From an uncultured Verrucomicrobiae bacterium (GTDB lineage Bacteria > Verrucomicrobiota > Verrucomicrobiia > Limisphaerales > UBA11358): a stretch of DNA of 64,000 nt. Position 1 is the stretch's first letter. Each line of letters opens with the position of its first letter. A program made the translations under genes and the position numbers. The notes under the pieces were generated by a model. That model searched no databases. It was not told the DNA's origin and saw only the letters and a program-made list of their open reading frames with translations. The stretch spans positions 161,603 through 225,602 of the forward strand of contig CAVTWB010000010.1 in NCBI GenBank assembly GCA_963738245.1. The letters run 5' to 3'. Below, piece after piece: positions 1,036 to 63,349 of this stretch.

Positions 1036-2589
1036 TTAATTCGCGGCGGAGTTGGTTGTGACAGTCTCAACAGCGTTCGTCACCGCCGCGGGCGGCGTGT
1101 TGGTGGAAACGGGTCCGACAACCGGCGCGACGGTTTCAGCGGGCAAACTGAGCTGGGTTCGCAAAACGGCGCGCATGGCGTAGGGCATGCCTTTCTGCGG
1201 ATCGAGCAGGTCGTTCAGCACGGTGCGATTGTAAACCTCAAACGGCGACAAACCGACACGCGCGAGGTTGCTCTGCATCTTGGAAATCTTCTTCTGATAG
1301 TTGTCATAAACTTTTCGCGCGAGCAGCCGGAAGCCGGCGGAACGGTCGTCCTGCCCGATGGCCAGCTCGTAATAAGACCGCGCCAGCAGCCCTTCGATGA
1401 CCCCGGTGATGCGTTCCTGCGAGGTGTCGCCGACCTCCGATTGCACGCGCGCCACGGCGTATTCGTCGAGCGTGAGATTGCGCGGCAAGGAATTTTGGTC
1501 GTTGTCCAAAATGGGCTTGTCCGGATATTTTTCGCCGAGGATTTTATACCACTTGGCGGCGTCGGCTGCGCGGTTGTTTTCGTAGAGAAAATAAACCGCG
1601 TCCTTCAGAAAATTCCGGTGGGCGTTGCTGATGTGGTCGCGGTTTTTCGCGTCCTCCCGCATCATGGTTTCATACGCATCATTGACTTTGGCAACCAAAT
1701 CCAGATTCGGCTCCAGCGAGGCGGTTTTGGCAAAGGGATCCTTGATGATGCGCCCGTGATGAAACGCCTGGAGCATGGACTGGTAAATAATGCGGCGCAA
1801 AGTGATCACATCATCGGCCTTCACCTTGTCCGGATTTTCCTTCGCTTTTTGCAATCCGAGCGCGCCCCAGTAAATCGCCTGTGCTTCCGGCAGCCGCCAG
1901 TCGAGCGGACCCCATTCCTCGTTCACTTTTTCGGCAAAGGCCGGGTCCATCTTGAATTTTTCGCGCAGCACGAGCGCATTTGTCCGGGCTTCGGCAGACG
2001 TCGGATTGATCAACTCGGAGAAATTCGTCCCGTCGGCGCCAAAAAACGGCTCCATTTCCATCGCCCATTGCTGTTTGTAATACGCATTCGCGTCGTCAAG
2101 ATTTTGCCCCATCTTGTGCTGGAAAAACCACGCCAGTTCGCGATAAATCAAAAGGTCGTTCGGATTGTAGCGCAGGCCTTCGTCGCGCAGCAGTTCGATG
2201 CCGCGCTCGACCCAGCGCCAGCGGTCGGGAAAATCCTTGAACTTGACGGAAATGTTGTAGGCCATGTTCCAGCCTTGAAACAGCCAGACCTGCGTGAAGC
2301 TCGGCTCCAGATCCGTGATCCAGGTGGCGAGCTGCGCCGCCTCGAAAAACTTGTCGTCGTTCTGCAAATCGTTGGCACGAATCCAGAGCGCATTGGCGAT
2401 CAGCCCGCGAAAGCCGCCCAGCGCGACCGTGGTGAACGCCAGCACCGGCGGCGCATTTTCCAGCGCGTTCATGCGCGTCAGGCCGAGCTGTTCGCGGTCG
2501 CGGTTCAGGGCATTTTGCAACTGGCCGGAACCCGCCAGCAAAATTGCCGCGAGCAGGAGCAGAAGAAATTTTTTGGCGCGGGCGTTCAT
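1036..2589 (-). CDS. conserved hypothetical membrane-anchored/exported protein (517 aa)
   Basis: Long ORF with an N-terminal signal/TM (MNARAKKFLLLLLAAILLAG) and a second hydrophobic segment. A 4-nt ATGA overlap with the upstream permease gene suggests an operon. No family recognised. Confidence 0.65.
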   Translation of the reverse strand: MNARAKKFLLLLLAAILLAGSGQLQNALNRDREQLGLTRMNALENAPPVLAFTTVALGGFRGLIANALWIRANDLQNDDKFFEAAQLATWITDLEPSFTQVWLFQGWNMAYNISVKFKDFPDRWRWVERGIELLRDEGLRYNPNDLLIYRELAWFFQHKMGQNLDDANAYYKQQWAMEMEPFFGADGTNFSELINPTSAEARTNALVLREKFKMDPAFAEKVNEEWGPLDWRLPEAQAIYWGALGLQKAKENPDKVKADDVITLRRIIYQSMLQAFHHGRIIKDPFAKTASLEPNLDLVAKVNDAYETMMREDAKNRDHISNAHRNFLKDAVYFLYENNRAADAAKWYKILGEKYPDKPILDNDQNSLPRNLTLDEYAVARVQSEVGDTSQERITGVIEGLLARSYYELAIGQDDRSAGFRLLARKVYDNYQKKISKMQSNLARVGLSPFEVYNRTVLNDLLDPQKGMPYAMRAVLRTQLSLPAETVAPVVGPVSTNTPPAAVTNAVETVTTNSAAN

Positions 2590-3974
2590 TGCGTTCCCTG
2601 CGCCGTCGCCAGTTCACGGCGATGAAACAGCGCGATGCCCGCCAGCGCGACGATGCCGCCGAGCAGCAAAACGATTTGCCCGAACGCCAGCCCCAGTTCA
2701 CTCCAGGTGATGGCCCGGCCGGTGCTCAACGAGTCGATCGGCGAAAAATTTTGCACCAGCCGCGTGACGGCCAGAATGCCCTTGAACATCGGGATCAGCA
2801 CCGCATCCGCGCCCGAATGCCCCATCACGCCGGTCTCCTCGTTGCCGCCCACGACCGTGCCGGACTCGACCGCGTCCGCCAGCGTGCCGCTCGACAGAAT
2901 GACGACCAGCATCGCCAGCGAGAAAAATGCAGCGACCGGAAACGAAAGAAAACTTGCCGCCGCCAGCCCCAGCGCCGCCATCAGCGCCATCCAGCAGAAA
3001 ATGATGCCCAGCCCGCGCGCAAAATTCAGCGCGAAGCCGCCTTCGGGATACAAAACCTCCATGCCGTCCTCGAGCGGGAACAGCAGCGCCGTTTCGTTCG
3101 GGTTCACAAAAATGATGGTGAGCACGCCGTTCGTGTCGAACAGATTCGGCGGGATTTCAAACTCGTGGAACGTGTCCGCCGCGAGGCTCATCGGCATTTG
3201 CGTCTGCCACAGCTTCGTGCTGCCCGGCACGCCGGCCTGCCACAAGGCAAGATAGGTGCCCGACGCGGTTTTCTGCGCCGCGTTGAATTTCACCCGCAGT
3301 TGCAGCGGCTTGTCCTGCAGAAAATTTTTGGCGAACCCCAGGTCAATCTGCCATTCGTGCTGATAGCCTGGCGGCACCACCTGCCATTCGGCCTTGACCT
3401 GCTCGCGAATCTGCTTTTCCACTTCCGGCAGGTCCGCCGTTGTGACCGGGCTGGATTTTAACCGCTCCTGCAAAACCTGTTTCGCCTCGGCGTCAATTTC
3501 CGCGTCGTGACTTTGCTCCTTCGCCGAACCACGCGCGACCAGCACCTGCTCGCGCAAAATTTTTTGTTCCGCCGCCGGCAATTTCCCCGCGCGCCATTGC
3601 AGCAATCCCAAAACGCACACGCCGGAAATCGCCAGCAACACCGCGTTCAGCGACACGATGCCGAGCCACTTGCCGAGCCAGATCTGCCAGCGCGCAATCG
3701 GCTTCGTCGCGACGACCTGGATCTGGCATTCCTCGATGTCGCGCGCCAGCGTGCCGCACGCCAGCCACAACGTCGAAAGCCCGAGCAGCGCCGTGATGGC
3801 GCTCAACGTGTAAGTCAGGATGATCTGCGTGAAACCCTGCGCCGTGCCGTCGTCCTGGATAACGAGCGGCAAACCGACCACCGCCAGGATCAGTAGCACC
3901 GCGATGACGAGGAACAGCTTGAACCGCAGCGCGGCCTTCCAAGTCAACCAGGCAATGGCGAGAATTCTTTGCAT
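2586..3974 (-). CDS. ABC-2/NosY-like transporter permease with a large central extracytoplasmic domain
   Basis: Multiple TM segments at both ends, and an ABC-2-like motif ARDIEECQIQVVATKPIARWQ. It lies downstream of an ABC ATPase gene. Confidence 0.65.
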   Translation of the reverse strand: MQRILAIAWLTWKAALRFKLFLVIAVLLILAVVGLPLVIQDDGTAQGFTQIILTYTLSAITALLGLSTLWLACGTLARDIEECQIQVVATKPIARWQIWLGKWLGIVSLNAVLLAISGVCVLGLLQWRAGKLPAAEQKILREQVLVARGSAKEQSHDAEIDAEAKQVLQERLKSSPVTTADLPEVEKQIREQVKAEWQVVPPGYQHEWQIDLGFAKNFLQDKPLQLRVKFNAAQKTASGTYLALWQAGVPGSTKLWQTQMPMSLAADTFHEFEIPPNLFDTNGVLTIIFVNPNETALLFPLEDGMEVLYPEGGFALNFARGLGIIFCWMALMAALGLAAASFLSFPVAAFFSLAMLVVILSSGTLADAVESGTVVGGNEETGVMGHSGADAVLIPMFKGILAVTRLVQNFSPIDSLSTGRAITWSELGLAFGQIVLLLGGIVALAGIALFHRRELATAQGTQ

Positions 3975-3983
3975 TAAAATTCA

Positions 3984-4054
3984 GTCAGACACGAATTTCA
4001 CGGATTGACACGAATTAAAATCTGGTTGGTGAAAACTCGTGCAACTCGTGTCTC
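3984..4054. repeat. inverted pair of tandem-word arms (acacgaatt-type words), hairpin-forming
   Basis: cagacacgaatttcacggattgacacgaatt ... aaactcgtgcaactcgtgtctc. It fills the spacer between the ABC ATPase stop and the permease start. Confidence 0.55.
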
Positions 4055-5243
4055 ATTTTGGTTTTCCCAGCAGCGACGAAAGTTTCTCATCCGCCTTCGA
4101 CAAATCCACCGGCTTCGATTCCGGTGCAGGTTTGGCCGTTTGCGGGGCTGGCTGGCTGGCCTGTGCCAGCGCTTCGAGTTTTTTGGCATCCACTTTCGGC
4201 GCGGCCGTTGGCAACACCGGCTTGGCTTCAACGGCCACCGGCGCAGCCTGCGGCAGCGACAGCTTTTCCAGAACTTTCTCCGCCGCCGGTTTTGCCTCCA
4301 TGCCGCCGCGCAAATATTCCGCCACGCGCGCCCCGGATTGCGCGCCGCTGGTTTCATGCGCCGCCGTGCGCGCCTTCGCCACCACGTCGAGAAAATAGCT
4401 CTCGAGATTCTGCGTCGGATTGTCCACGCGCACTTCGCCGGTCGAAACGTCCTTGCGGATGATTTCCAAAACCCGTTCCAAAGTTTCGCGCGGAAGCACC
4501 GGCGTGGTGATTTGCAGCGTGTCCGGCGTCGCCAGCAAATCCTTCAGCGTGCCGGCGGCCTGGATTTTTCCGCCATAATAAATCACCACGCGGTCGCAAA
4601 CATCTTCGACATCGGAAAGCAGGTGGCTGCTCAAAATCACCGTCTTGCCGCGCCGCGCCAGCGCGATGATCAAATCCTTCACCTCACGGCAGCCAATCGG
4701 GTCAAGCCCGGCGGTCGGCTCGTCGAGAATCACCAGATCCGGATCATTGATGAGCGCCTGCGCCAGCCCGATGCGGCGCTGCATGCCTTTGGAAAATTCG
4801 CCGACCGCACGCGTCTGCGTTTTGCCGAGGCCAACCATTTCCAGCAATTGTTCCGCGCGACTGTCGCGCTCGCCTTTCGAGAGATGAAACAGGTTTCCGA
4901 AAAAATCCAGCGTCTCGCGCGAATTAAGATAGCGATACAAATATGATTCTTCCGGCAGATAGCCGATGCGCGATTTCGTCTGCACATGTCGTGGCGAATG
5001 GTCGAAGACCTCGATGTGACCCTTGGTCGGATTCAGCAAGCCGAGCAGCAGCTTGACCGTCGTGGATTTGCCGGAACCGTTCGGGCCAAGCAATCCGAAA
5101 ACTTCGCCGCGCCGGACTTCAAAATCCACATTGTCCACCGCGCGCGCCTTCGGGCGGTTCCAGAAATCCTTGAAGACTTTGGTCAGGCCACGAACAGAAA
5201 CAACAACTTCTCCGTTAGATTTCGGATGCGACTCGGCGGACAT
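4053..5243 (-). CDS. ABC transporter ATP-binding protein with a low-complexity A/P/K-rich C-terminal tail
   Basis: Walker A GPNGSGKST, signature-like FSKGMQRR, Walker B LVILDEPTAGLD. The tail reads ...AKPAAEKVLEKLSLPQAAPVAVEAKPV... Confidence 0.9.
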   Translation of the reverse strand: MSAESHPKSNGEVVVSVRGLTKVFKDFWNRPKARAVDNVDFEVRRGEVFGLLGPNGSGKSTTVKLLLGLLNPTKGHIEVFDHSPRHVQTKSRIGYLPEESYLYRYLNSRETLDFFGNLFHLSKGERDSRAEQLLEMVGLGKTQTRAVGEFSKGMQRRIGLAQALINDPDLVILDEPTAGLDPIGCREVKDLIIALARRGKTVILSSHLLSDVEDVCDRVVIYYGGKIQAAGTLKDLLATPDTLQITTPVLPRETLERVLEIIRKDVSTGEVRVDNPTQNLESYFLDVVAKARTAAHETSGAQSGARVAEYLRGGMEAKPAAEKVLEKLSLPQAAPVAVEAKPVLPTAAPKVDAKKLEALAQASQPAPQTAKPAPESKPVDLSKADEKLSSLLGKPK

Positions 5244-11159: not shown

Positions 11160-11164
11160 GTTTT

Positions 11165-11250
11165 GTTAAATCGTTAAATCGTTACTTTGTTAAATCGTTG
11201 CACCGGGATTTGCCGAACCGGTTTAACGATTCGACCATTCAACAATTTAG
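11165..11250. repeat. inverted pair of tandem-word arms (gttaaatc words)
   Basis: gttaaatc gttaaatc gttacttt gttaaatc gttgcaccgg ... ccggtttaacgattcgaccattcaacaattt. Occupies the spacer between two minus-strand genes. Confidence 0.6.
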
Positions 11251-12317: not shown

Positions 12318-14808
12318 TTACGCCATCGCGCGGGCGATGCTGTTCCACCACGCGTCGTGCAGTTCGGTGAGCGGGGCGGAGAATTCGCCGCTGGCGGTTT
12401 TCACCGTCAGCTTGTCGCCGCCGACTTTGCCGATTTGCACCGCGGGCACGCCCATGAGCTTGGCGCGTTCGACGACTTTCACGGCGTCGAGCGCCTTGCA
12501 ACTGATGACGATGCGCGATTGCGTTTCGCCGAAGAGCAACGCGTCGAGGCGCGTAGTGGTAGGGACGCGTTCCACCGCGTCCCCATCTTCCAGTTTGGGA
12601 CGACGTGGAAGTCGTCTCTACCAACGAAAGATCAATCGTCGCGCCGATAAGGCGCGGCGTTTCGCGGGCGATGAGTTGGCTAATGCAGCTTTCCGCGAGC
12701 GCGACGGCGAGGCCGCCTTCGCTGCAATCGTGCGCGCTCTTCACGAGGCCGGATTGGATCAGGCCGATGAGCGTGGTGTGCAGCGTCTTCGCGACTTCAA
12801 GGTCGCAGCGCGGCGGCGAACCGTTCTTCTTGCCGTGGACGACTTGCAGATACGCGCTGCCGCCGAGGCCGAAAATCGGATCGTCTTTGTCCACCGCTTC
12901 GCCGAGCAGGATGATGGCGTCGCCTTCGTCCTTGAACCATTGCGTGGTGACGTGCTCCAGCTTCTCGATGAGGCCGACGACGGAAATCGTGGGCGTCGGA
13001 TCAATCGGGCCGGCGGGGCTTTGATTGTAGAGCGAGCAATTGCCGCCGGTGACGGGCGCGTTGAAGGCTTTGCAACCTTCCGCCAGACCGCGCACGGATT
13101 CCTTGATCTGCCAGAACAGCTCGGGCTTGAGCGGGCTGGGCATGTTGAGATTGTCCGTCGCGCCGAGCGGAATCGCGCCGGAGCAAGCGAGATTGCGGCA
13201 CGCTTCGGCCACGGCGATTTTCGCGCCTTCGTAGGGATCGAGATAAACGTAACCGCCGTTGCAATCCACGGTCATGGCGATCAACTTCTCGGAAACTGTC
13301 GGGTCGCCAACTTTCGCGGCGAGTTCCGCGCTCATCACGGGCAACGAATCCGTCTTGATGCGGATGACCGCCGCGTCGCTGCCGGGCAGAACGACTGAGC
13401 CGTCGCGCACTTGATGATCGTATTGGCGATAGACCCAGTTCTTCGACGCGATGCTCGGCCACGCCAAAAGCTTTATCAAATCGTCAGACGGGAGATTGGG
13501 TATCGGGAATATCCGTCCAGCCGGAACGCTCGAACATCTTTCAGATACGCCGGCTCAACGGCTTCGCGCTGATACACCGGCGATTCGTCGGCAATTTTCC
13601 GCGCGGGAATATCCACGACGAGTTTGCCGCCGTGCCGCACCTTCATGTGGCCGGTGTCGGTGATGATGCCGATCTCGGACCACGGCAAATCCCACTTGTC
13701 GAAAATGCGTTTCACTTCCTCTTCGCGGCCCTTGTGGACGACGATGAGCATGCGCTCCTGCGATTCCGAAAGCATGATCTCGTAGCTGCTCATGTTCGGC
13801 GCGCGTTGCGGAACTTTGTCGAGTTCGATCTCGATGCCCGTGCCGGCGCGCGCCGCCATTTCGCAGGTGGAACAGGTCAAACCCGCCGCGCCCATGTCCT
13901 GCATGCCGGCGACGCAACCGGTGGCGAGCAGTTCGAGGCACGCTTCGCACACGAGTTTTTCCATGAACGGATCGCCGACCTGCACCGCGCCGCGCTGTTG
14001 CTCGGCGGATTCCTCGGTCAAATCCTGCGACGCAAACGCCGCGCCCGCGAGACCGTCGCGACCCGTCGCCGGGCCGACGTAAAACACGGGATTGCCCACG
14101 CCCTTGGCCGCGCCGCGCGTGATCTGTTCGTGGCGCAGCACGCCGAGGCAGAACGCGTTCACGAGCGGATTGCCTTGATACGTCTTGTCGAAATACACCT
14201 CGCCCGCGACGGTCGGGATGCCGAAGCAATTCCCGTAATGCGCGATGCCGCTGACGACGCCGGCGAACAGGCGGCGGTTGTTGCGATTTCGATTTTGTGC
14301 TTTGGGGATCACGCGCCCTCGGCGTTGCGACGACCCCGTCGTTCGAATTTCGATTGACGAGGCGTCACCGCGACGGTCGCGCTCCCGTTTATTCGTCCGT
14401 GATCGGCCCAAAGCGCAGCGAGTTCACCGCGCAGACCGGCCGCGCGCCCATCGTGAAAATGTCGCGCACGATGCCGCCGACGCCGGTGGTCGCGCCCTGA
14501 AACGGCTCGACCGCGCTCGGATGGTTGTGCGACTCGATCTTGAACGCGATGGCGATGCCGTCGCCGATGTCAATGATGCCGGCATTTTCCTCGCCCGCGC
14601 CGACGAGGATTTTCGGCGACTTGGTGGGGAAGGTCTTGAGCAGCGGCTTGGTGTTTTTGTAGCTGCAATGCTCGCTCCACATCACGGAAAAGATGCCGAG
14701 CTCGGTGTAGCTCGGCGTGCGGCCGAGGATTTCCACGGCGTGGGCGTATTCTTCCGGCGTGAGGTTGTGCTTGGCAACCAACTCTGGGGTGATGGCGGGT
14801 TCGGTCAT
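12318..14808 (-). pseudogene. purL: phosphoribosylformylglycinamidine synthase subunit PurL, split over four frames as assembled
   Basis: Pieces read in order: [11 protein letters not shown]...CSYKN...[24 protein letters not shown]...[10 protein letters not shown]; then [26 protein letters not shown]...; then LLAWPSIASKNWVYRQYDHQV...PVTGGNCSLYNQ...; then RLDALLFGETQSRIVISC...WWNSIARAMA*. The breaks are near 14389, 13480-13520 and 12575-12610. Confidence 0.88.
14281..14307 (-). repeat. heptamer-word repeat inside purL (part of an insertion of about 110 nt)
   Basis: The coding strand reads CCCCAAA GCACAAA ATCGAAA TCGCAAC and encodes PKAQNRNRN immediately before the conserved [11 protein letters not shown]. 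Confidence 0.55.
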
Positions 14809-14969
14809 GGAAAAAATTTTAATTCAATTAAACTTGGCAGCTCGCGCGTCAATTTCCGGGCGAAACTCAATTTCAATCCGGTCAAAGTAAAACTTTCAGT
14901 CGCGCTTGGAAATCAAAAACCAAAAGCCGTGAGCCACGGCAGGCAATGGCCAACCGCAAGGTTCAAAAC

Positions 14970-14996
14970 GGCCTTTAGAAACGGAGGCCTTTTTTT
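14970..14996 (+). terminator. orphan plus-strand intrinsic-terminator-like hairpin upstream of brnT
   Basis: GGCCT ttagaaacgg AGGCC followed by T7. No plus-strand gene lies upstream of it. Confidence 0.4.
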
Positions 14997-15033
14997 GTTT
15001 GCAGCCACGGCTTCCGTCGGTTCAACTTTCCCC

Positions 15034-15315
15034 ATGCTCACGTTTGAATGGGACGCGAACAAGGCCAGAGCCAATCTGACCAAGCACGCCGTCAGCTTTC
15101 AGGAGGCCACCACGGTTTTTGGCGATCCGGTTTCCATCACCATTCCCGACCCGGCGCACTCGCAGGCCGAGAACCGGTTCATCATTTTGGGCAAGTCGCA
15201 TCAGGGCAGAATTCTGGTTGTCGCCCACACCGAACGCGGCGATAATATCCGTGTCATCAGCGCGCGACCCGCGAGCCGCCGCGAAAGAAAACAATATGAG
15301 CAAGCCATCAGCTAA
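15034..15315 (+). CDS. brnT: BrnT-family (DUF497) toxin
   Basis: MLTFEWDANKARANLTKHAVSFQEATTVFGDP...RFIILGKS..GRILVVAHTERGDNIRVISARPASRRERKQY, which is the characteristic BrnT pattern. Confidence 0.8.
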   Translation: MLTFEWDANKARANLTKHAVSFQEATTVFGDPVSITIPDPAHSQAENRFIILGKSHQGRILVVAHTERGDNIRVISARPASRRERKQYEQAIS

Positions 15316-15517
15316 ATCAGCAGATAAAGAAATGCAGCCGGAATATGATTTTTCAGCCGGTGTGCGTGGCAAGCATTTCCGGCGCTACCAGCGCGGCACG
15401 AACGTGGTGGTGCTCGATCCGGACGTGGCCAAGTTTTTTTCCAACGCCGAAACCGTGAACGATTCGCTGCGCGCACTCGCGGGCATCATCCGCCGCCAAA
15501 AAGTTGTGGTGAAATAA
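15296..15517 (+). CDS. brnA: BrnA-like antitoxin
   Basis: Overlaps the brnT 3' end by 20 nt. Contains PEYDFSAGVRGKH...VVVLDPDVAKFF...SLRAL, typical of antitoxins partnered with BrnT. Confidence 0.65.
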   Translation: MSKPSAKSADKEMQPEYDFSAGVRGKHFRRYQRGTNVVVLDPDVAKFFSNAETVNDSLRALAGIIRRQKVVVK

Positions 15518-15519
15518 TT

Positions 15520-16134
15520 ATGAAGAAAACCTGTATTGTGATGGTTGCGATTATTTTGGTCGCAATTCTCAATCAGGGATGCTCCTCTCTTGGTGAACTG
15601 CCGTCCGGCAAGGTATGGTATAAGCCCGGAATAAGCGAAGATCAAACACAGTTGGATTGGTTGATTTGCCAACAAGTAGCATTGCAAAACGGCTCTCTTC
15701 AAGCAGCCCCCAATCAAATACAAGCAACACCCAGCCAATCTTACAATCCACCTACCACTGTTCAACCGAATGCTTACGGTTTGGGAGTCAATGCCGACCA
15801 ATATGGCCGGCCAAGCACCTACCAGTTGCAAAATGGCCAACAACTCGATCCGATATTCAACGCAGGTGTGAAGCAAAACGCGTATGGACCAGGCGTTGGG
15901 CAAGACCAGTTTGGGAGACCTGTTTATAATACTCCATACGATAATGCTGCATCTGGAAATTATGGACAGGGAAGTGATGCCGGGGGACAGATTGCCTTAA
16001 ACATGCTAAATGTGATGGCAGAAAACGGCAGAGCCAAAAGCTTAATGACGGCAAAGGGGTATCGTTTAGTAAGCACAAATTCACCTTCGCTGATAAACAG
16101 ACCGCTGCATTTTACTGACGCGGACTTTAAATGA
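15520..16134 (+). CDS. lipoprotein of unknown function, Q/N/G/P-rich with a duplicated NAYGxGVxxDQ[YF]GRP motif
   Basis: Lipobox ILNQGC. Starts 2 nt after the brnA stop. Visibly lower GC than the flanks. Confidence 0.6.
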   Translation: MKKTCIVMVAIILVAILNQGCSSLGELPSGKVWYKPGISEDQTQLDWLICQQVALQNGSLQAAPNQIQATPSQSYNPPTTVQPNAYGLGVNADQYGRPSTYQLQNGQQLDPIFNAGVKQNAYGPGVGQDQFGRPVYNTPYDNAASGNYGQGSDAGGQIALNMLNVMAENGRAKSLMTAKGYRLVSTNSPSLINRPLHFTDADFK

Positions 16135-16170
16135 ACGACAAGGGCGGCCAGTGTTACAAAAACACTGCTT

Positions 16171-16641
16171 ATGAATAAACCAGCGGCTGTCATTGATAAA
16201 TCGCTGTTGCAGGCCATTTGCGAACAAAAGGCAGAGAAACGGAGTGCTTATTACAAAGCATTGTCCAAGCACTATCAAGTAGTCGTTACGCTGGTTTTGG
16301 TTGAAGAAATTTGGGTCAACATTGCAAAACCTAACGAAAAAACACCGCCAACGGTTCTTGCAAACTTGCAGGATTTTCTTCGATTACACGATTCGTGGAT
16401 TGCTGATCCTTTAGAAATTGCGTTTGCCGAGCTTGTAAAAGGAGAGTCAGTTAAAATCCTTCCACGACCAGCTAATAATTTGGAGCATAGTTTTTCCATA
16501 CTGCGTCCTGAAAATCCAGCACTGGTAAATTGGGTAGAAATCAGGCGATCAAAATACTTGGCCGTGGATTTCGCGACCAATTTAATAATCTTGCCGATGA
16601 AAGATATGTCCAATCTGCATTGCTGTGTGACCGATTATTAA
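16171..16641 (+). CDS. hypothetical protein (low GC); may continue in the 16530-16766 frame after a frame break near 16540
   Basis: ORF of 156 aa. The overlapping +1 ORF continues in a protein-like way (..AIKILGRGFRDQFNNLADERYVQSALLCDRLL..). No family recognised. Confidence 0.4.
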   Translation: MNKPAAVIDKSLLQAICEQKAEKRSAYYKALSKHYQVVVTLVLVEEIWVNIAKPNEKTPPTVLANLQDFLRLHDSWIADPLEIAFAELVKGESVKILPRPANNLEHSFSILRPENPALVNWVEIRRSKYLAVDFATNLIILPMKDMSNLHCCVTDY

Positions 16642-16851
16642 CGCGTGACAAAGGAATGCACAATGTTATGACACTGCTCAAAGATTGCGGGTTTTGGGAT
16701 GGAATATCTGTCTTCATTGATCCCAAAAAAGACATGGAAATTCAAATTTCTCAAAGCCTAATCTAGTTTTAGAAAAATTCTTCCACCCATTCTGCATTCG
16801 TTCAAGCGCGGGCAATTCATCCAAGATTTTCTGGATGACTGCCCTTCGGAA

Positions 16852-17136
16852 TTACTGCCCCGCATCCAGCCGCAGCAGGCAATGGCCGAAATCCACCACC
16901 GGCTGGCCGGGCGTGGGCAGATATTGGCGCACGATCTGGTAGACGCCGCCGCGCCCCCGCTCCACCAGTCCCGCCTTCTGCAAAACTTGCAGATGTTTGA
17001 CGCTGCTGTCGTAGCTGCAACCGCCCACCGCCGCCAGTTCGGCAATCGTCCGCGCCTCGCCGCAGGTCAATTCCTTGAGCATCTTCCAGCGCGACATCTG
17101 GTTGATGGCTTGAAGCGCCCGTTTGAGGTCGGGCAA
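16852..17136 (-). CDS. ArsR/SmtB-family winged-helix transcriptional regulator
   Basis: RWKMLKELTCGEARTIAELAAVGGCSYDSSVKHLQVLQKAGLVERGRGGVYQI matches the ArsR-type HTH pattern. TTG start. Confidence 0.7.
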   Translation of the reverse strand: MPDLKRALQAINQMSRWKMLKELTCGEARTIAELAAVGGCSYDSSVKHLQVLQKAGLVERGRGGVYQIVRQYLPTPGQPVVDFGHCLLRLDAGQ

Positions 17137-17220
17137 CGGCTTGACGATGGCATTTTTCGCGTGTTCTAGGTGTTGAATTCATGCAGAAAACCTTAAATAA
17201 TGGGGAAATCAATGTCAACT

Positions 17221-17525
17221 GACGGATCGCTTATTCTGTTGACAGGATGGCTTCTTCTGTCAGGCGAGGAATGGAATTTTTATCGGCGGGAATGCTTTTT
17301 CCATAGGAGGGACGTAAACATTTTCTACAGAAGAGATGGCATTCTTCTTCGGCGGGATGGAATTGTTTGCTGGCAGGATTTTGCCTAAGATTGTCGGCGA
17401 GATTGCTTTGTTTGTCGGCCGGAATGCCTTTTCTTTCAGCCGGATTGCTTATTACTCGGGCCGGCCGGCCTTTTCGTTCCGGCGGATTCGCCTTTAATCA
17501 CGGCGCGAGTCCATTTGCTCATGCC
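17221..17525. repeat. tandem array A1: about 14-15 degenerate units of about 21 bp (GGCGGGA-type dyad core plus T-tract)
   Basis: Unit starts at 17221, 17241, 17263, 17285, 17306, 17330, 17351, 17372, 17396, 17417, 17438, 17459, 17481 and 17502. Example units: ggcgggaatgctttttccata, ggcaggattttgcctaagattgtc, ggcggattcgcctttaatcac. The right end is 8 nt from the purQ stop. Confidence 0.85.
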
Positions 17526-17533
17526 TTTCATGC

Positions 17534-18244: not shown

Positions 18245-18333
18245 AATTTAGGCGCGGGGCGCGGGGCTTTAGGCAGTGGGCTTCTGAATTCGGGCCTCTA
18301 GCCCAAAGCCTCGCGCCTCGTGCCTCGCAAATT
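18245..18333. repeat. inverted pair of 33-nt four-heptamer arms filling the whole purS-purQ spacer
   Basis: AATTTAG GCGCGGG GCGCGGG GCTTTAG GC ... GCCCAAA GCCTCGC GCCTCGT GCCTCGC AAATT. Confidence 0.7.
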
Positions 18334-20228: not shown

Positions 20229-20283
20229 ATTCTCCGGTTCAATGCCACCTTGACCCGCGATTCTGAATAAATTTTAATCTAAT

Positions 20284-20319
20284 CCGGCAAGTAACCAGAC
20301 GGTTAAAACCCGGCTTTTT
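20284..20319 (+). terminator. zwf intrinsic terminator; contains the GTAACC-agac-GGTTA palindrome
   Basis: CCGG caa GTAACC agac GGTTA aaac CCGG followed by CTTTTT. Confidence 0.6.
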
Positions 20320-20394
20320 CGCTAAAACACCAGCAAAATGCGGGTTTTTGCCGGCTTCAAATAAAATTTGCTTTTTTTTGAACCAAATACGAGG

Positions 20395-20588
20395 TTGCCC
20401 GGTCTGATATTACGAATGGGTTTGGGATTTCGCTGTTCGTTTAGGGTTGGCATAGGGATTTTGCTCGTGGTGCGGCTCGGACAGCGACCCCAAGTTGGCC
20501 GCACCACCCTTCTGAGCGCCCGGGTGAGGGCGTATAAATCTCGTCACCCAGAGAGGCCGGACGCAAGTCCGGCCTTTCGCTTTTTTTT
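20395..20588 (+). ncRNA. candidate structured small RNA or leader of unknown class
   Basis: Three consecutive stem-loops (GGTGCGGC...GCCGCACC; GCGCCC gggtga GGGCGT; GGGTGA...TCACCC), then a strong terminator AGGCCGGAC gcaa GTCCGGCCT plus T8 at 20554-20588. There is no convincing ORF, and the 5' end is unknown. Confidence 0.25.
20554..20588 (+). terminator. rho-independent terminator
   Basis: 9-bp GC-rich stem AGGCCGGAC/GTCCGGCCT, GCAA loop, ttcgc then T8. Confidence 0.75.
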
Positions 20589-20651
20589 ACATGAATAACC
20601 GGCGGAAATCCGCATTGATTCAGCCGGAAAAGCCGCTAAACTTCCCAACGC

Positions 20652-26083: not shown

Positions 26084-26160
26084 TGGTGCGCGCGGCGGGA
26101 GTCGAACCCACAACCTTCGGCTTCGGAGGCCGACGCTCTATCCAATTGAGCTACGCGCGC
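26084..26160 (-). tRNA. tRNA-Arg (anticodon CCG), CCA encoded
   Basis: GCGCGCGTAGCTCAATTGGATAGAGCGTCGGCCTCCGAAGCCGAAGGTTGTGGGTTCGACTCCCGCCGCGCGCACCA. It has a 7-bp acceptor stem, anticodon stem TCGGC/GCCGA with loop CTCCGAA, and T-loop TTCGACT. Confidence 0.92.
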
Positions 26161-47310: not shown

Positions 47311-47312
47311 AA

Positions 47313-47393
47313 CGGATTGATGGATTATTGGATGAATGGATTGCTGAAAGGCTGCCAATTCATTTATCCACCAATCCTAACATCCGTTCATCC
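47313..47393. repeat. inverted pair of four-word arms (ggattgat-type 8-mers) downstream of purH
   Basis: ggattgat ggattatt ggatgaat ggattgct ... caattcat ttatccac caatccta acatccgt tcatcc. Confidence 0.65.
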
Positions 47394-53937: not shown

Positions 53938-54001
53938 GCCCCTAAAATGGCCGTGCAAGTTCCAAGTTTCAAGTTGTCGTTTGCTCCGCTAAATTTACCG
54001 C

Positions 54002-54891
54002 ATGTTAAAACGCAAAGAACTGCCCGTTGCGCTCACCATCGCCGGCTCGGACAGCGGCGGCGGCGCGGGCGTTCAGGCCGATCTGAAAACGTTTGCCGCG
54101 CTTCGGCGTCCACGGCACCAGCGCGATTGCCTGCCTCACCGCGCAAAATCCAAAACAGGTTTTGGCGGCCGAGCCGTGTTCGCCCAAAATGCTGCGGCGG
54201 CAGATCGAAGCCGTGTTTGCCGAACTGAAACCGGCGGCGGTGAAAACCGGAATGTTGTTTTCGGTGGAAAACATTTCCGTCGTCGCGGATTTCTACCGCA
54301 ACTCGAAACTGAAAACTAAAAACTCAAAACTGATCGTGGATCCGGTCATGGTATCCACCAGCGGCGCTAAATTGCTCCAGCCGGCGGCGGTAAAAATCCT
54401 GACGGGAAAAACTGCTGCCACTGGCCGCGCTCGTCACGCCGAATCTGGACGAGGCGGAAATTCTGGCGGAACAAAAAATTTCGTCGCCGGAGGATTTGCG
54501 TGCCGCCGCGCGGAAAATCCAGGCGCGTTTCGGCTGTGCGGTTTTGGTGAAAGGCGGCCACCTGAAAAATTCCCGCGAGGCAATTGACGTTTTCTTCGAC
54601 GGAGAAACGGAACTGCTGCTGTCCGCTCCGTTTGTGAAGGGCGTTTCGACGCACGGCACCGGCTGCACTTATTCCGCCGCGATTTGCGCCGCGCTGGCGC
54701 TCGGCCACGATTTGCCGCACGCGGTGGAGATCGGGAAAAATTTCATCACGGCAGCTATCGCCGGCAGCTTCCGCATCGGAAAACATTTCGCGCTCGGATA
54801 TTTTCCGCTCAAAGATCCGGCCAGCTCAACTGGTAAAACTGGTTCGCATTTGTCGCGTTCAGGAAAATGTAATTGCTGCCGTTCGCGATGA
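54002..54891 (+). pseudogene. thiD: hydroxymethylpyrimidine/phosphomethylpyrimidine kinase ThiD, two +1 frame breaks as assembled; true 3' end uncertain
   Basis: [24 protein letters not shown] | [15 protein letters not shown]...KTGML...IVDPVMVSTSGAKLL... | LLPLAALVTPNLDEAEIL...VLVKGGHL...GTGCTYSAAICAALA. There is an extra base near 54101-54105 and one in the A-run at 54407-54411. Confidence 0.85.
54300..54332 (+). repeat. 33-nt four-heptamer element E1, in-frame in thiD
   Basis: AACTCGAAACTGAAAACTAAAAACTCAAAACTG encodes [11 protein letters not shown] directly before the conserved IVDPVM. Confidence 0.85.
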
Positions 54892-56563: not shown

Positions 56564-57307
56564 ATGTCCGACACGCTCGTCGTCAACGAAGTCTATTTGA
56601 GCCTGCAGGGTGAAAGCACCTTCGCCGGGCTGCCGTGCATTTTCATCCGGCTCACCGCGTGCGACTTGCGCTGCTCCTACTGCGACACCGCCTACGCCTT
56701 CACCGAAGGCAAAAAGAAAACGCTCGCGGAAATTCTGGCGGAAGTCCGTCGGCAGGCCGCGCCGTTTTTGAATTCAAAATTAAATATTCAAAATTCAAAA
56801 CTGCCCTTGGTGGAACTGACCGGCGGCGAGCCGCTGCTCCAGAAAAATTCCCTGCCGCTGATGAAATCGCTCTGCGACGACGGCTTCACCGTTTTGCTCG
56901 AGACCAGCGGCGCGCATGACATTTCCAAAATTGACCCGCGCGTCCGCCGCATCATGGACTTGAAATGCCCGTCCAGCGGCGAAGTTGCCCGCAACCGGTT
57001 TGAAAACATTGCGCACCTGAAAGCCACGGACGAAATCAAATTCGTCATCGGCACGCGGGAGGATTATGATTGGGCCAAGCTGCAAATTGCCGAGCACCAG
57101 CTTGCTTCCGTCTGCCCGCTGCTGTTTTCCTGGGTGCATCCGCTCACGCCGGCGCAGCAGAGCAAGGTGCTCAAAAAAGTTCCCGCCGGGCACACGCCGA
57201 TTTCCCGCCGGGAGCTCGCGGAAAAAATCATCGCCGACGCGCTGCCGGTGCGTTTCCAAATCCAGCAGCACAAAATCATCTGGCCGCCGGAACAGCGCGG
57301 CGTTTAG
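56564..57307 (+). CDS. queE: 7-carboxy-7-deazaguanine synthase QueE (radical SAM)
   Basis: VNEVYLSLQGESTFAGLPCIFIRLTACDLRCSYCDT...ELTGGEPLLQ... Confidence 0.88.
   Translation: MSDTLVVNEVYLSLQGESTFAGLPCIFIRLTACDLRCSYCDTAYAFTEGKKKTLAEILAEVRRQAAPFLNSKLNIQNSKLPLVELTGGEPLLQKNSLPLMKSLCDDGFTVLLETSGAHDISKIDPRVRRIMDLKCPSSGEVARNRFENIAHLKATDEIKFVIGTREDYDWAKLQIAEHQLASVCPLLFSWVHPLTPAQQSKVLKKVPAGHTPISRRELAEKIIADALPVRFQIQQHKIIWPPEQRGV
56771..56803 (+). repeat. 33-nt four-heptamer element E2, in-frame in queE
   Basis: AATTCAAAATTAAATATTCAAAATTCAAAACTG encodes NSKLNIQNSKL directly before PLVELTGGEP. Confidence 0.85.
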
Positions 57308-57308
57308 C

Positions 57309-57388
57309 AATTTACGATTTACGATTGCCGATTTACGATTGGCAAAACAGCGGCGCGTAAATCGTAAATCAAAAATCGTAAATTCGTG
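57309..57388. repeat. inverted pair of 33-nt four-heptamer arms (atttacg words) filling the queE-aminotransferase spacer
   Basis: AATTTAC GATTTAC GATTGCC GATTTAC GATTG gcaaaacagcggcg CGTAAAT CGTAAAT CAAAAAT CGTAAAT TCGTG. The right arm includes the GTG start at 57386. Confidence 0.75.
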
Positions 57389-57714
57389 ACCACAACAGAG
57401 ACTTTTCAATTACTCCGCGACTACGAATCGCGCAACATCGTGTTCATTGAGCCCGACGGCTCGTGGCCGATTGTCTGGGAACGCGCCAAGGGCGTTCACG
57501 TCTGGGATGCGGAGGGCAAAAAATATCTGGATCTGACCGCCGCGTTCGGCGTCGCCGCCGCCGGCCACGCGAATCCAAACGTCGTTCGCGCCGGGACAGA
57601 AACAGATGGCCAAACTGCTGCACGCGATGGGCGATGTGCATCCGCACGCGCTCAAGGCCGAACTCGCGCGGGAATTGAGCCGCATCACTTTCGAGCGGTG
57701 GAGCAGCCTGTCAG

Positions 57715-57747
57715 AACTCAAAACTAAAAATTCAAAATTCAAAACTG
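57715..57747 (+). repeat. 33-nt four-heptamer element E3, in-frame in the aminotransferase but in a different codon phase
   Basis: AACTCAAAACTAAAAATTCAAAATTCAAAACTG is read as (E)LKTKNSKFKT(G) directly before KVIFSNSG. Confidence 0.85.
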
Positions 57748-58448: not shown

Positions 58449-58483
58449 AATTCAAAATTCAAAATTCAAAATTCAAAATTCTG
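58449..58483 (+). repeat. 35-nt variant E4 of the four-heptamer element, coinciding with an aminotransferase frame break
   Basis: AATTCAAAATTCAAAATTCAAAATTCAAAATTCTG. Compared with the canonical ...CAAAACTG end it has 2 extra nt (TT at 58479-80). Confidence 0.8.
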
Positions 58484-60949: not shown

Positions 60950-61465
60950 ATGAGCGAAGAAATTTTTGACATCGTCAACGAGCGCGACGAGGTGGTCGGG
61001 CAGAACACGCGGCGCGAGGTTCATGCGCGCGGGTTGTGGCATCGCGCGGTGCATGTGCTGGTGTTCAATGCGCGCGGCGAGGTGTTTCTCCAGAAGCGCT
61101 CGATGAAAAAGGACATCGCCGCCGGCAAATGGGATTCGTCGGCGTCCGGCCATCTGGACAGCGGCGAGGCTTACGACGCGTGTGCGGTGCGCGAGGTGCG
61201 CGAGGAGATCGGACTGAACATTGTGACGACAGACAGCCGCACGCGGCTTTTCAAGATTGACGCGCGCAAGGAGACGGGCTGGGAATTCTGCTGGATTTAC
61301 CGCTGCGAAAACGAAGGGCCGTTCGTTTTGCATCCCGATGAAATCGAGACGGGCGCGTGGTTCGCGCCGGACGCGGTGACGAAGTGGGTGAACGAAAAGC
61401 CGCAGGATTTTGCGAGCGCGTTTGTGCTGATCTGGAAAACATTCGTTAAATCGTTGAAGTGTTGA
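60950..61465 (+). CDS. Nudix hydrolase
   Basis: Nudix box GKWDSSASGHLDSGEAYDACAVREVREEIGL. The 5' 65 nt form DR2. Confidence 0.85.
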   Translation: MSEEIFDIVNERDEVVGQNTRREVHARGLWHRAVHVLVFNARGEVFLQKRSMKKDIAAGKWDSSASGHLDSGEAYDACAVREVREEIGLNIVTTDSRTRLFKIDARKETGWEFCWIYRCENEGPFVLHPDEIETGAWFAPDAVTKWVNEKPQDFASAFVLIWKTFVKSLKC

Positions 61466-61515
61466 ATTGTTATATCGCCCGCAAAATTTCGATTCAACGA
61501 TTCAACAATTTAACC
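61444..61515. repeat. inverted pair of tandem-word arms overlapping the nudix 3' end
   Basis: cgttaaatcgttgaagtgttgaattgtt ... tcgattcaacgattcaacaatttaacc. The left arm encodes the last residues FVKSLKC*. Confidence 0.6.
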
Positions 61516-61569
61516 ATTCAGCGATTCTTCCACACTTTACTTGCGGCGAAAATGGAGTAGTTATTTCCC

Positions 61570-62196: not shown

Positions 62197-62253
62197 GAAA
62201 ATCAGGTTGTCAGTCGCGCAGCCAATGAAAGCGGCGTAGTTGGGGCAATTTTC

Positions 62254-62590
62254 CCCTGCGCGCGGGGTAAATTCACCTTCGTGCGGGCATATTTCGTTCC
62301 CGTGCGGGCATCATTTACCCCCGTGCGCCTTGTTTTCGCCTCCATACAGGTGTTTTTCACTCCCCATCGCCTGTTTTCGGCTCCGTGCGGGGCATTTGCT
62401 GGTTCGTGCGGGCGTTTTTCACTCCGTGCGGGCCATCGGCCCGTCCGTGCGCCCGTTTTTCGGTTCGTGCGGAGGATTTGCCGCTCCGTGCGGACCAACT
62501 CCCGCTCCGTGCGGGCGGCCTCGGCTGCCGAACAGCCATTTCCCGTTCCGTGCGGCTGTGCAGAAAAATATTGCGCCCGTCCGCAACCGG
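62254..62590. repeat. tandem array A2: about 16 slots of 20-21 bp (CCGTGCGGGC dyad core plus T-tract)
   Basis: GTGCG cores at 62281, 62302, 62323, 62385, 62406, 62426, 62447, 62467, 62488, 62509 and 62550 (spacings 21, 21, 62, 21, 20, 21, 20, 21, 21, 41). Example units: ttcgtgcgggcgtttttcac, tccgtgcgcccgtttttcgg. Confidence 0.88.
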
Positions 62591-62662
62591 CGTATAAATC
62601 ATTTCTCAATCACTTCGCTCGTTCAGGAAGGAAAACTTAAGCAAATCGAAACGCACACTTCT

Positions 62663-63349
62663 ATGAAACAAAAAATCATCAGTCTTCTAGCGACCTTCAA
62701 ATCCACCGACGCCTTCGGCATCAAATACGCTGCCGACTATCCTGCCGGCAGCGTCGGCGCGACGCAATTCGCCCTCGTTCACGCCGCCGTGCCGCAGACC
62801 AGCACCCTCGGCGCCGCGCAGGTTTCCAGTTCCGAACAAATTGACAGCGCCGTGCTGGGCAAGGTCGCCGGACGATTGCATCTGCGGCAGGACATGCTCG
62901 GCATCACCGACGCCGTTCATTCCCTCGTCCTGCTCGGCACGCCGGGACTCGACGGAAAATTTCACATGCCGCGCAGCGCGGGCGACCAGGCCCTGCTCAA
63001 TTCCGCCCGCGCCTTTGCTGCGGACGCCCCGGCCTTCTCCGCGCCATTCATCAGCGTCGGCCTCGCCGCCGATTTCATCGCCCATCTCACCAGCGACATC
63101 GCCGATTTTGAAACCGTCATTGGCAGCAAAAACACCGGCACCGGCACGGAAGCCGCCGCCACCGGCGGCATGGACGACACCGCGCAAAAAGCCGCCGTGG
63201 CGTTGCATGTGCTGAACACCGTCGTGAAGAACACCTGCAAAAACGACCCGGCTAAGCTCGCCGAATGGGCCACCGCCAGCCATGTCGAAAAACACACGCC
63301 CGTCCCGCGCGCCAAACCGGCTCCGGCTCCGGCGGCGACACAGAAATAA
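62663..63349 (+). CDS. hypothetical protein (228 aa), alanine-rich, no signal peptide
   Basis: ATG-initiated ORF starting 73 nt after array A2, with protein-like composition. The track ORF from 62240 reads through the repeat array and was trimmed. Confidence 0.55.
   Translation: MKQKIISLLATFKSTDAFGIKYAADYPAGSVGATQFALVHAAVPQTSTLGAAQVSSSEQIDSAVLGKVAGRLHLRQDMLGITDAVHSLVLLGTPGLDGKFHMPRSAGDQALLNSARAFAADAPAFSAPFISVGLAADFIAHLTSDIADFETVIGSKNTGTGTEAAATGGMDDTAQKAAVALHVLNTVVKNTCKNDPAKLAEWATASHVEKHTPVPRAKPAPAPAATQK

Follow-up and report, generated by a model that had tools for sequence, protein, structure and literature searches.

Tandem word repeats at gene junctions and inside genes of an uncultured Verrucomicrobiae bacterium and its relatives

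The window studied here is a 64-kb stretch of DNA from an uncultured Verrucomicrobiae bacterium (contig CAVTWB010000010.1 of assembly GCA_963738245.1, positions 161,603 to 225,602). In the window, the spacer between queE and a class-III aminotransferase gene is occupied by a hairpin (57309-57388) whose arms are built from degenerate copies of a heptamer word, GATTTAC in the 5' arm. Tiny repeats of this kind are numerous in this soil verrucomicrobium and in its relatives, each with about four copies in tandem of a word of 7-11 bases.

We analysed the window together with up to 20 kb from each of 80 relatives, which amounts to 1.30 Mb in total. The comparison set consists of 80 loci from metagenome-assembled genomes (MAGs) of Verrucomicrobia subdivision 3 (Limisphaerales / Pedosphaera-like), and the relatives are coded L001 onward. 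QueE homologues, together with these loci, assign the window itself to the same group. Tandem arrays with at least three copies were counted with Tandem Repeats Finder (TRF), because a stricter periodicity scan overlooked degenerate intergenic arrays. The chance expectation in the window was taken from Markov-1, -3 and -5 simulations for the arrays and from block shuffles for the hairpins, and fold z-scores were calculated against 200 dinucleotide-preserving shuffles. Gene identities at the hairpins of the window were assigned by Pfam match (PurS, PurQ, PurH, class-III aminotransferase, NUDIX, ClpP), while genes in the loci of the relatives were called with a heuristic based on the GC content at third codon positions (GC3), so that many hairpin contexts are without assignment.

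Hairpins between genes in the window

The 5' arm of the hairpin between queE and the aminotransferase gene (57309-57341, plus strand) reads AATTTAC GATTTAC GATTGCC GATTTAC GATTG, is 33 nt long and is kept in 15 related genomes. It is followed on the plus strand by a GC-rich loop of 14 nt (57342-57355), which is not conserved (48% pairwise identity between species), and by a 3' arm of 33 nt (57356-57388) with the words CGTAAAT CGTAAAT CAAAAAT CGTAAAT TCGTG. This layout of arm, loop and arm agrees letter for letter with a preliminary description of the DNA, made from the sequence by itself, and the gene names proposed there were upheld by homology for QueE and by Pfam for PurS, PurQ, PurH and the class-III aminotransferase. 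The stop codon of queE, TAG (57305-57307), ends 1 nt before the 5' arm, and the start codon of the aminotransferase gene, GTG (57386-57388), constitutes the last three bases of the 3' arm, paired at the stem base. TRF reported 4.4 copies of ATTTACG and 4.0 copies of CGTAAAT for this hairpin, and an inverted-repeat finder recovered arms of 29 nt with a complementarity of 86%.

Five further sites named in the preliminary description were also borne out as hairpins with periodic arms (periods 8, 8, 8, 7 and about 9-10). A hairpin of 8-nt words located between the NUDIX gene and clpP (61445-61529, plus strand) has the arms CGTTAAAT CGTTGAAG TGTTGAAT TGTTATAT and CGATTCAA CGATTCAA CAATTTAA CCATTCAG, of which the 5' arm runs into the final codons of the NUDIX gene. 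Immediately 3' of the purH stop codon (47311-47388, plus strand), the 8-nt words GGATTGAT GGATTATT GGATGAAT GGATTG are followed by their complement. The other three are found on the minus strand: a GC-rich hairpin of 7-nt words, with GGCGCGG in 2.4 and GCCTCGC in 3 copies, which occupies the purS-purQ spacer (18250-18325); a hairpin of 8-nt words, with 4.4 copies of GTTAAATC and an imperfect complement, in the spacer of two co-directional genes (11163-11245); and the weakest of the six (3987-4053), which is built of 9-10-nt words of the CACGAATTT / CACGGATTGA family and also occupies a spacer between co-directional genes. The genes flanking the latter code for an ABC-transporter ATPase upstream (4053-5243) and a protein without a Pfam match downstream (2586-3974). 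In total, five of the six hairpins fill the entire spacer between two co-directional genes.

The arms of the six hairpins consist of 3-5 tandem copies of a word of 7-10 nt and pair imperfectly, and each hairpin folds as a single long stem-loop (-23 to -46 kcal/mol, z-scores of -3.3 to -5.6). We identified five hairpins with an alignment score of at least 13 in the window, as compared to 0.2 in block shuffles, and four of these are among the named intergenic sites. Likewise, TRF found eight arrays of period 7 and three of period 8, where the Markov models predict 0.2-0.4 of each, which corresponds to a 20-40-fold enrichment. Word tandems in the window are thus far more frequent than in simulated or shuffled sequence, contrary to the outcome that the preliminary description had named as a refutation.

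Arrays and inserts inside genes

Single heptamer arrays were also identified in frame inside genes of the window. The array in queE (56771-56800, plus strand) has 4.3 copies of AATTCAA and codes for NSKLNIQNSKL in a loop that precedes the TGGEP strand. The aminotransferase gene contains an in-frame array with 5.1 copies of TCAAAAC at a site referred to as AT1 (57711-57746, plus strand) and a perfect array with 4.7 copies of AATTCAA at a site referred to as AT2 (58449-58481, plus strand). In a gene that we read as ThiD-like (HMP-P kinase), judging by its N-terminal sequence, four copies of AAACTGA/AAACTCA (54306-54333, plus strand) code for 11 residues before IVDPV, and the gene at 1-995 contains an array on the minus strand (568-601) with 4.9 copies of CCAAAGT/CCAAAGC in the sense direction. 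These five arrays are clearer instances of single units than the two runs cited previously, of which the one at 53955-53980 has only 2.9 copies just 5' of a gene start, while no convincing periodicity was seen at 14826-14935. A palindromic insert, GGTAGGGACGCGTTCCACCGCGTCCC ... GGGACGACGTGGAAGTCGTCTCTACC, was moreover found in the ORF (open reading frame) read as the C-terminal region of purL (12557-12623, minus strand), where it coincides with a frame change. By eye and without an alignment, this insert appears to resemble a palindrome dispersed among the relatives, CGGAGGGACGAGTTnCACGAGTCCC...GGGACTCGCAGAGCTCGTCCCTCCG.

The reading frame shifts at the AT2 array in this assembly, and one additional unit or two fewer units would mend it. 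Other conserved genes in the window are similarly split over two frames: the aminotransferase gene also at about 57590, the ORFs read as purL at about 12590, 13478 and 14400, and the ThiD-like gene at 54093-54319. One of the breaks is located at a GGG run and one at the perfect heptamer array. These breaks may represent uncorrected assembly indels or pseudogenes, and the exact copy numbers in the window should therefore not be over-read. The existence of the word repeats is corroborated by the 80 further MAG assemblies. In practical terms, the arrays give rise to low-complexity peptides that are spurious, NSKFKIQNSKF among them, and perhaps also to frameshift artefacts or errors of assembly in MAGs.

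The array in queE corresponds to residues 68-79, in the variable loop preceding the TGGEP strand, and its site and length are the same in most relatives. The word differs between species (AATTCAA, AACTCAA, CACTCCG, CTTCGCA, CCCTCAA, GCAATCG), with the periodicity kept and often perfect, and the array is shorter by exactly 21 nt (three units) in L009 and by 27 nt in L026. Every insert at AT1, hairpins included, has a length divisible by three and contains no stop codon. Five genomes have no insert at this site (24 nt), others have heptamer arrays of +21 or +33 nt, with inserts of up to +87 nt, and further states are in-frame hairpins of 8-mer words (L043, L078) and a palindrome of about 75 nt.

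Period, length and context in the clade

Among the TRF arrays with at least three copies in the 1.30 Mb, period 7 is by far the most common (218 arrays), followed by periods 6, 8, 9 and 10 (39, 32, 14 and 14 arrays). The heptamer arrays have a median length of 30 nt, with a 5th-95th percentile range of 23-36 nt and a mode of 31-32 nt, or 4.4-4.6 units. The basic unit suggested earlier, about four degenerate words of 7-9 nt that together measure about 33 nt, is thus confirmed in the window and in the 80 related genomes. The most enriched tetramer in the words is GATT/AATC (30%, as compared to an expectation of 10%).

The arrays fall into two classes, as had been proposed, with pairs between genes and single in-frame units within genes. 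An inverted partner within 130 nt was found for 57 of the 171 non-genic arrays and for 14 of the 181 genic arrays, and for none in the reversed-sequence control. Well over 100 of the approximately 220 heptamer arrays are in frame within genes, according to a rough ORF map. The genic arrays lie on the sense strand, with a composition of A 34%, C 32%, T 20% and G 14%, and only 10 of 128 genic words contain a stop codon in some frame on this strand, as compared to 50 of 128 on the antisense strand. The context of 71 word-hairpins was 31 times co-directional, 14 times convergent and 4 times divergent, with many contexts unassigned, and the median distances from the stop codon to the stem and from the stem to the start codon are a few nucleotides.

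Turnover of hairpins at orthologous junctions

We compared the junction between queE and the aminotransferase gene in the 70 genomes in which the two genes are adjacent. The genes abut or overlap in 23 genomes (e.g., TAGTG). A GATTTAC hairpin is present in 15 genomes, a CACGGATG-type hairpin of 10-11-nt words in 12 and hairpins of other words in 8, while the spacer in the remaining 12 genomes is without a strong hairpin. About six of the latter contain visibly decayed remnants of GATTTAC hairpins, in which words have been lost independently in each arm. Arms also gain and lose words independently of each other among the relatives (L024 as compared to L038; L004; L015). At the purS-purQ junction, the GGCGCGG words of the window correspond to a hairpin of GATTTAC words in L025 and L128, and the NUDIX-clpP junction shows the same kind of replacement between relatives as the queE-aminotransferase junction. 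The preliminary description had asked whether pairs are gained or lost between strains; at the species level, hairpin pairs are present, absent, decayed or replaced at one and the same junction in the 70 genomes.

Directly before the ATG of clpP, a well-conserved leader, CTTTACTTGCGGCGAAAATGGAGTAGTTATTT (61530-61569 in the window), was observed; of the 28 related loci in which ClpP was matched, most have it as well. It is kept while the hairpin zone just upstream is freely replaced, and may be a promoter or an element of the 5' untranslated region.

Pairing, conservation and termination

In the 15 orthologous GATTTAC hairpins, 25 base pairs are kept and 90.9% of the cells in the alignment are paired. 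The shuffles reproduce this value (90.3%) because both arms are simply conserved. Compensatory changes were seen in only two pairs, and covariation above the level of the shuffles was not found in these 15 hairpins. Where the sense strand could be assigned (47 word-hairpins), the mismatches in the stems relative to it comprise 43 G·U and 56 A·C, which is not the bias that selection on an RNA structure would produce.

An association of the pairs with transcription termination had also been raised, but this link is without support, since no T-tract follows the stem at any of the six hairpins in the window and none of them was picked up by a terminator-like scan. Scans for terminator and promoter consensus sequences account for none of the six sites. 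The only match in the window to Rfam 15 at the gathering score is a tRNA-Arg (26087-26160), and the tRNA and Rfam scans explain none of the hairpin sites.

Dispersal and word families

The six hairpins in the window carry six different word sets, but the word families recur at other junctions across the clade. Besides purS-purQ in L025 and L128, GATTTAC hairpins were identified at two more junctions in L022 and at one in L043, and CACGGATGAA-type hairpins were found at no fewer than 8 sites. Word families grade into each other, as exemplified by ACGATTT, AACGATTT, CACGAATTT and CACGGATTGA. An 18-mer from the GGAGGGACGAGTT palindrome gives 25 matches with both strands counted. As one copy of a palindrome may be hit on each strand, these come down to about 17 separate places, which are located in the AT1, ksgA, queE and ThiD-like sites and at a few further positions.

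A palindrome of the form CGGAGGGACGAGTTnCACGAGTCCC-loop-GGGACTCGCAGAGCTCGTCCCTCCG, about 70-85 nt in length, was observed in frame within the aminotransferase, ksgA/rsmA-like, queE and ThiD-like genes, where it takes the very sites that hold heptamer arrays in other species. Its positions include L015:11138, L016:12396, L031:12732, L034:8600 and 11283, and L056:10212 and 12578, among others.

Words at different genes within one genome are more alike than chance predicts, with a mean cyclic distance of 2.05 as compared to 2.85 +/- 0.11 after permutation, and 36 near-identical pairs of words within genomes were found where 12 are expected (permutation p < 0.0005; phylogeny not controlled). In L008, for example, CACTCCG is the word at all four sites (620-655, 3058-3088, 4077-4103, 4809-4837), and the same perfect word is shared by queE and the ksgA-like gene in L005 (10207, 12435), L030 (10207, 12474) and L035. 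Identical perfect arrays in different genes of a genome suggest homogenisation between loci. We dropped a strict reading of one word per genome on account of L009, L019 and L053, each of which has four or five different words; the weaker similarity remains.

The exact ATTTACG array was observed in at least 120 metagenome contigs (L081-L200, containing ATTTACGATTTACGATT) with a GC content of 0.34-0.62, human-gut assemblies included, and the word therefore recurs well outside the clade. The arrays in these contigs have up to 12 units, and only about 30% have an inverted partner. In the clade, a conserved gene whose product starts with MARPTN has a single array of 4-5 units of CGTAAAT/CGCAAAT directly 5' of its start codon (L037:14699, L041:15445, L043:14727, L049:15064, L052:16564, L076:14865, L027:7114). 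In most of these loci a small hairpin of a different kind, TTGGAGTTCACGCTTTAGCGTGAACTCCAA, comes before the array; this leader architecture is conserved.

Origin and maintenance of the repeats

Our preferred, though tentative, reading is that the repeats constitute a clade-wide superfamily of miniature DNA repeats, consisting of tandem word arrays that persist at permissive sites only. Slippage of replication within an array would create and renew arrays at the DNA level, template switching would copy one arm of an inverted pair from the other arm, and elements would be copied or converted between dispersed sites, with selection clearing the repeats everywhere except at permissive sites. The permissive sites are of two types, namely surface loops of proteins, which hold single, stop-free arrays on the sense strand with a length that is a multiple of three, and junctions of adjacent genes, at which inverted pairs are tolerated. 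A pair between co-directional genes would be transcribed within the operon mRNA and fold such that the stem base juxtaposes the upstream stop and the downstream start codon, and the insert would therefore do little harm to translational coupling. This juxtaposition may be the reason why inverted pairs are tolerated at junctions where the stop and start codons of relatives overlap. The hairpin would then be a tolerated by-product, neither a terminator nor a sequence-specific regulator. In favour of this reading are the excess of period 7 and the narrow range of lengths, the split into two classes, the turnover by whole words and whole elements, the dispersal of word families, the absence of a signature specific to RNA, the placement close to stop and start codons, and the published precedents discussed below.

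Several considerations weigh against this interpretation. In a comparison of 12 genomes that is partly biased, in that only recognisable hairpins are included and low-complexity arms align easily, the GATTTAC arms are 83% identical between pairs of genomes, as compared to 60% at four-fold degenerate sites in queE and 48% in the loop, and the 3' arm surpasses the four-fold sites in all 66 pairs, the 5' arm in 65 of the 66. Arms that are more conserved than synonymous sites imply that the word itself is under purifying selection or is continually homogenised, as a neutral by-product would decay. Furthermore, the fold of the sense strand is the more stable one in 18 of 23 co-directional hairpins, in an energy test that includes many orthologues of a single site. 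The two tests of strand asymmetry disagree (18 of 23 by energy, 43 to 56 by mismatches), and selection at the RNA level is therefore treated as unproven. No enzyme or mechanism of dispersal has come to light, the reading accounts neither for the 7-nt unit nor for the array length of about 33 nt, the test of word similarity within genomes lacks a control for phylogeny, and the analysis covered 64 kb from this genome and up to 20 kb from every relative.

It is conceivable, albeit unlikely, that the hairpins are functional RNA stem-loops in the operon mRNA, with a role in protection from 3'-exonucleases, in processing, or in sequestering the start codon for translational coupling, in which case the word structure would merely be the way such stems grow. 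The stems span from 1-6 nt past the stop codon to the start codon, paired at the base, and co-directional and convergent junctions are enriched while divergent ones are rare. The conservation of the arms beyond that of synonymous sites and the higher stability of the sense strand in the 18 of 23 hairpins point in the same direction, as do the one-sided changes in the queE hairpin, which on the sense strand mostly turn A-U into G-U, and the Xanthomonas repeats discussed below are transcribed (PMC4692102). However, the overall excess of G·U over A·C is absent (43 as compared to 56), covariation does not exceed that of the shuffles, and 23 of the 70 genomes do without a hairpin at the junction, since the genes abut or overlap, with many others decayed or replaced. 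It is also the word that is conserved and not the pairing alone, and related arrays are found within coding regions, in which a role as a stem-loop is improbable. We consider it distinctly unlikely that the repeats are non-autonomous mobile elements, similar to REPINs or to MITEs (miniature inverted-repeat transposable elements), that are moved by a trans-acting enzyme such as a RAYT-type Y1 transposase, with the single arrays representing decayed halves. Families dispersed over unrelated sites, with conserved arms and variable loops, are in line with this suggestion, as are nested hairpins in L001 and L008 and an arm conservation above the neutral expectation, and the pairing of about 30% of the metagenomic ATTTACG arrays recalls the split into REP singlets and REPIN doublets (PMC3116915). 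Yet the six hairpins in 64 kb have six word sets, unlike the near-identical REPs of one genome, and neither target-site duplications nor a GTAG-like head were seen. No transposase turned up, although no search aimed at transposases was made, and changes by whole words together with perfect periodicity point to slippage rather than to a cut-and-paste mechanism.

It strikes us as quite improbable that the words serve as periodic sites for a protein that binds single-stranded nucleic acids, with each subunit covering about 7 nt. An OB-fold protein of the cold-shock or S1-like type would be an example, and the arrays would then tune translation initiation or RNA melting. Such a role would fit the specific period of 7, the conserved word sequence, and the A-rich arrays, such as (CGTAAAT)n, that end at or within a few nucleotides of the start codons of several different genes; similarly, TAACTGA repeats in Beggiatoaceae mostly stop 1 nt short of the start codon, and one CspB protein is reported to bind each heptamer (PMC4679880). 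On the other hand, the words differ widely among the sites of one genome, with periods from 7 to 11, and the hairpins are not always oriented alike with respect to transcription, with the GATT-type arm on the 5' side at 57309 and on the 3' side at 11163 and 61445. Pairing with the other arm would also mask the site. Least plausible, to the point of being very nearly dismissed, is that the hairpins are intrinsic (Rho-independent) terminators. They are stable and directly follow stop codons, and 14 of 71 lie between convergent genes, but none of the six in the window was retrieved by the terminator-like scan or is followed by a T-run. The AT-rich hairpins have a T-rich arm, a GC-rich core and an A-rich arm, which is the reverse of a terminator on both strands, and most belong to apparent operons and include the next start codon in their stem.

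A more speculative and, in our estimate, improbable alternative is that the arrays do not result passively from slippage: an active system, templated or drive-like, would write and rewrite them, placing cassettes that measure about 33 nt and consist of a favoured heptamer at set positions throughout the genome. Candidates would be an activity of the reverse-transcriptase or telomerase type, or else biased conversion or uptake. If true, this alternative would explain the 7-nt unit and the narrow range of array lengths, the perfect arrays that are kept at orthologous sites despite changes of the word, the switch of all four examined arrays in L008 to CACTCCG, and the joint change of the word in both arms of a hairpin.

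Further candidate readings were set aside. G-quadruplexes were rejected on the grounds that the words are G-poor; only the hairpin at 18250-18325 is G-rich, and it is without four G-tracts. An analogy to DNA uptake sequences (DUS/USS) was rejected because the words inside genes of the window (AAAATTC/AAAACTC) differ from those of the hairpins (GATTTAC, GATTCAAC, GGATTGAT, GGCGCGG, CACGAATTT). CRISPR and iteron readings were dropped on inspection, as the sites are scattered and have neither spacers nor replication genes next to them.

Comparison with known repeats

A full-text literature search on heptamer tandem repeats in Verrucomicrobia returned no relevant paper. The closest precedent is given by the GGGAATC repeats of Xanthomonas, which were described together with the GGGGA(T/C)T repeats of Nostoc (Rehm et al. 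2015, PMC4692102). These tandem heptamers are strongly over-represented with a preference for about four units, and are mainly found between aligned ORFs, at a distance of up to 50 bp from a stop or start codon, with 70-75 convergent array pairs per genome that could form stem-loops or cruciforms (PMC4692102). Among related species the repeats keep their position but differ in length and sequence, and there is one G-rich word per genome, which was explained by the formation of G-quadruplexes (PMC4692102). The heptamers in the clade studied here are similarly over-represented (218 arrays, as compared to 39 hexamer and 32 octamer arrays) with about four units, and the inverted pairs are similarly found mainly at co-directional junctions near stop and start codons. 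In contrast, the words are rich in A, T and C, specific to the site and 7-11 nt in length, instead of one G-rich word throughout the genome, and many of the arrays are in frame within genes. Because the words are G-poor and vary by site, G-quadruplexes cannot explain the preference for four units in this clade. The same signatures as in Xanthomonas, with words that are unable to form a G-quadruplex, imply that the published account of the four units cannot be general.

Short heptanucleotide repeats known as STRR were reportedly described from heterocystous cyanobacteria (Calothrix) by Mazel et al. in 1990. Direct repeats of TAACTGA are present in Beggiatoaceae, cyanobacteria and Bacteroidetes and in Beggiatoaceae their most frequent end point is 1 nt ahead of the start codon, and the cold-shock protein CspB was reported to bind with one protein per heptamer (PMC4679880). 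The STRR and TAACTGA repeats share with the arrays studied here that they are tandem heptamers in 2-6 copies, mostly intergenic, often ending at a start codon and specific to the lineage, but they are almost always direct (with one inverted case in a Beggiatoa genome), are built from one word or a few in each genome and belong to other phyla. Geobacter metallireducens has elements with four copies of GGACCGG, in 49 copies inside and between genes, as well as elements with five copies of MTYCTGA, with one consensus word per family, and these were annotated as putative regulatory RNA or binding sites (PMC2700814). Unlike what is seen here, that account describes neither inverted pairing nor replacement of the word at orthologous sites (PMC2700814). 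The over-representation of heptamers in several bacterial phyla has been on record since 1990 (Calothrix STRR), and a genome survey from 2007, cited in PMC4692102, also reported it. There is no agreed answer as to its cause or function.

Rickettsia palindromic elements (RPE), attributed to Ogata et al. 2000, are said to be located both in frame in conserved genes and between genes, and to measure 100-150 bp. Mentions of RPE are also found in PMC10969869 and PMC1779305. The in-frame 8-mer hairpins in L043 and L078, the palindrome of about 75 nt with GGAGGGACGAGTT and the insert at 12557-12623 in the window resemble them in their permissive positions, but the elements studied here are 33-90 nt long and periodic, whereas RPE have no arms of tandem words. 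Repetitive extragenic palindromic (REP) sequences, including bacterial interspersed mosaic elements (BIMEs) and REPINs, are short imperfect palindromes in intercistronic spacers that occur as inverted doublets and singlets with conserved arms and a variable spacer (PMC3116915). The repeats in this clade are likewise dispersed in spacers as doublets and singlets, with conserved arms and a variable loop. However, REPs are near-identical within a genome, extragenic by definition, linked to RAYT and not built of tandem words. In 64 kb of this genome there are six word sets in place of near-identical copies, even though word families recur across the clade, and the location is not strictly extragenic, with arrays inside genes of the window, in-frame hairpins inside genes of the relatives and the insert in the purL ORF. 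Nor do the repeats resemble MITEs, as the loops are unrelated between sites and species (48% identity) and no duplication is seen when filled and empty junctions are compared, a test that is weakened by divergence. The preliminary description was right in assigning the repeats to no standard REP, BIME or MITE family, but it did not recognise the heptamer precedents in Xanthomonas, Nostoc and Geobacter.

The repeats in this clade differ from the known systems in the G-poor words, in a word and period (7-11 nt) that vary by site, and in the repeated rewriting at orthologous sites. The clade offers a dense natural comparison of the birth, homogenisation and loss of repeats, with one junction that is empty, filled, decayed or replaced across 70 genomes and with four or five protein loops in which the insert has been rewritten repeatedly.

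Additional observations

A spacer of 423 nt between co-directional genes (20229-20651) is strongly structured (z = -5.1) and contains several inverted repeats at 20269-20369. Longer tandem repeats of 21 and 41 nt, with units that contain GTGCGGG, were seen at 62272-62515 within an ORF (62240-63349). Several MAGs with close relatives of the locus are labelled as Methylomirabilota, Acidoferrales, Bifidobacteriaceae, Akkermansia sp. or Limnocylindrales (L002, L004, L021, L032, L040, L042, L054, L059 and others), and these look like mis-binned contigs or mislabelled bins. Finally, a segment of about 2.7 kb between the start of purL and purQ (14809-17533) has a lower GC content (about 0.51) and contains small accessory ORFs. 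Among these, a toxin-antitoxin pair similar to BrnT/BrnA (about 15033-15517) and a regulator similar to ArsR (16852-17136) were noted by eye. The segment looks like an inserted island.

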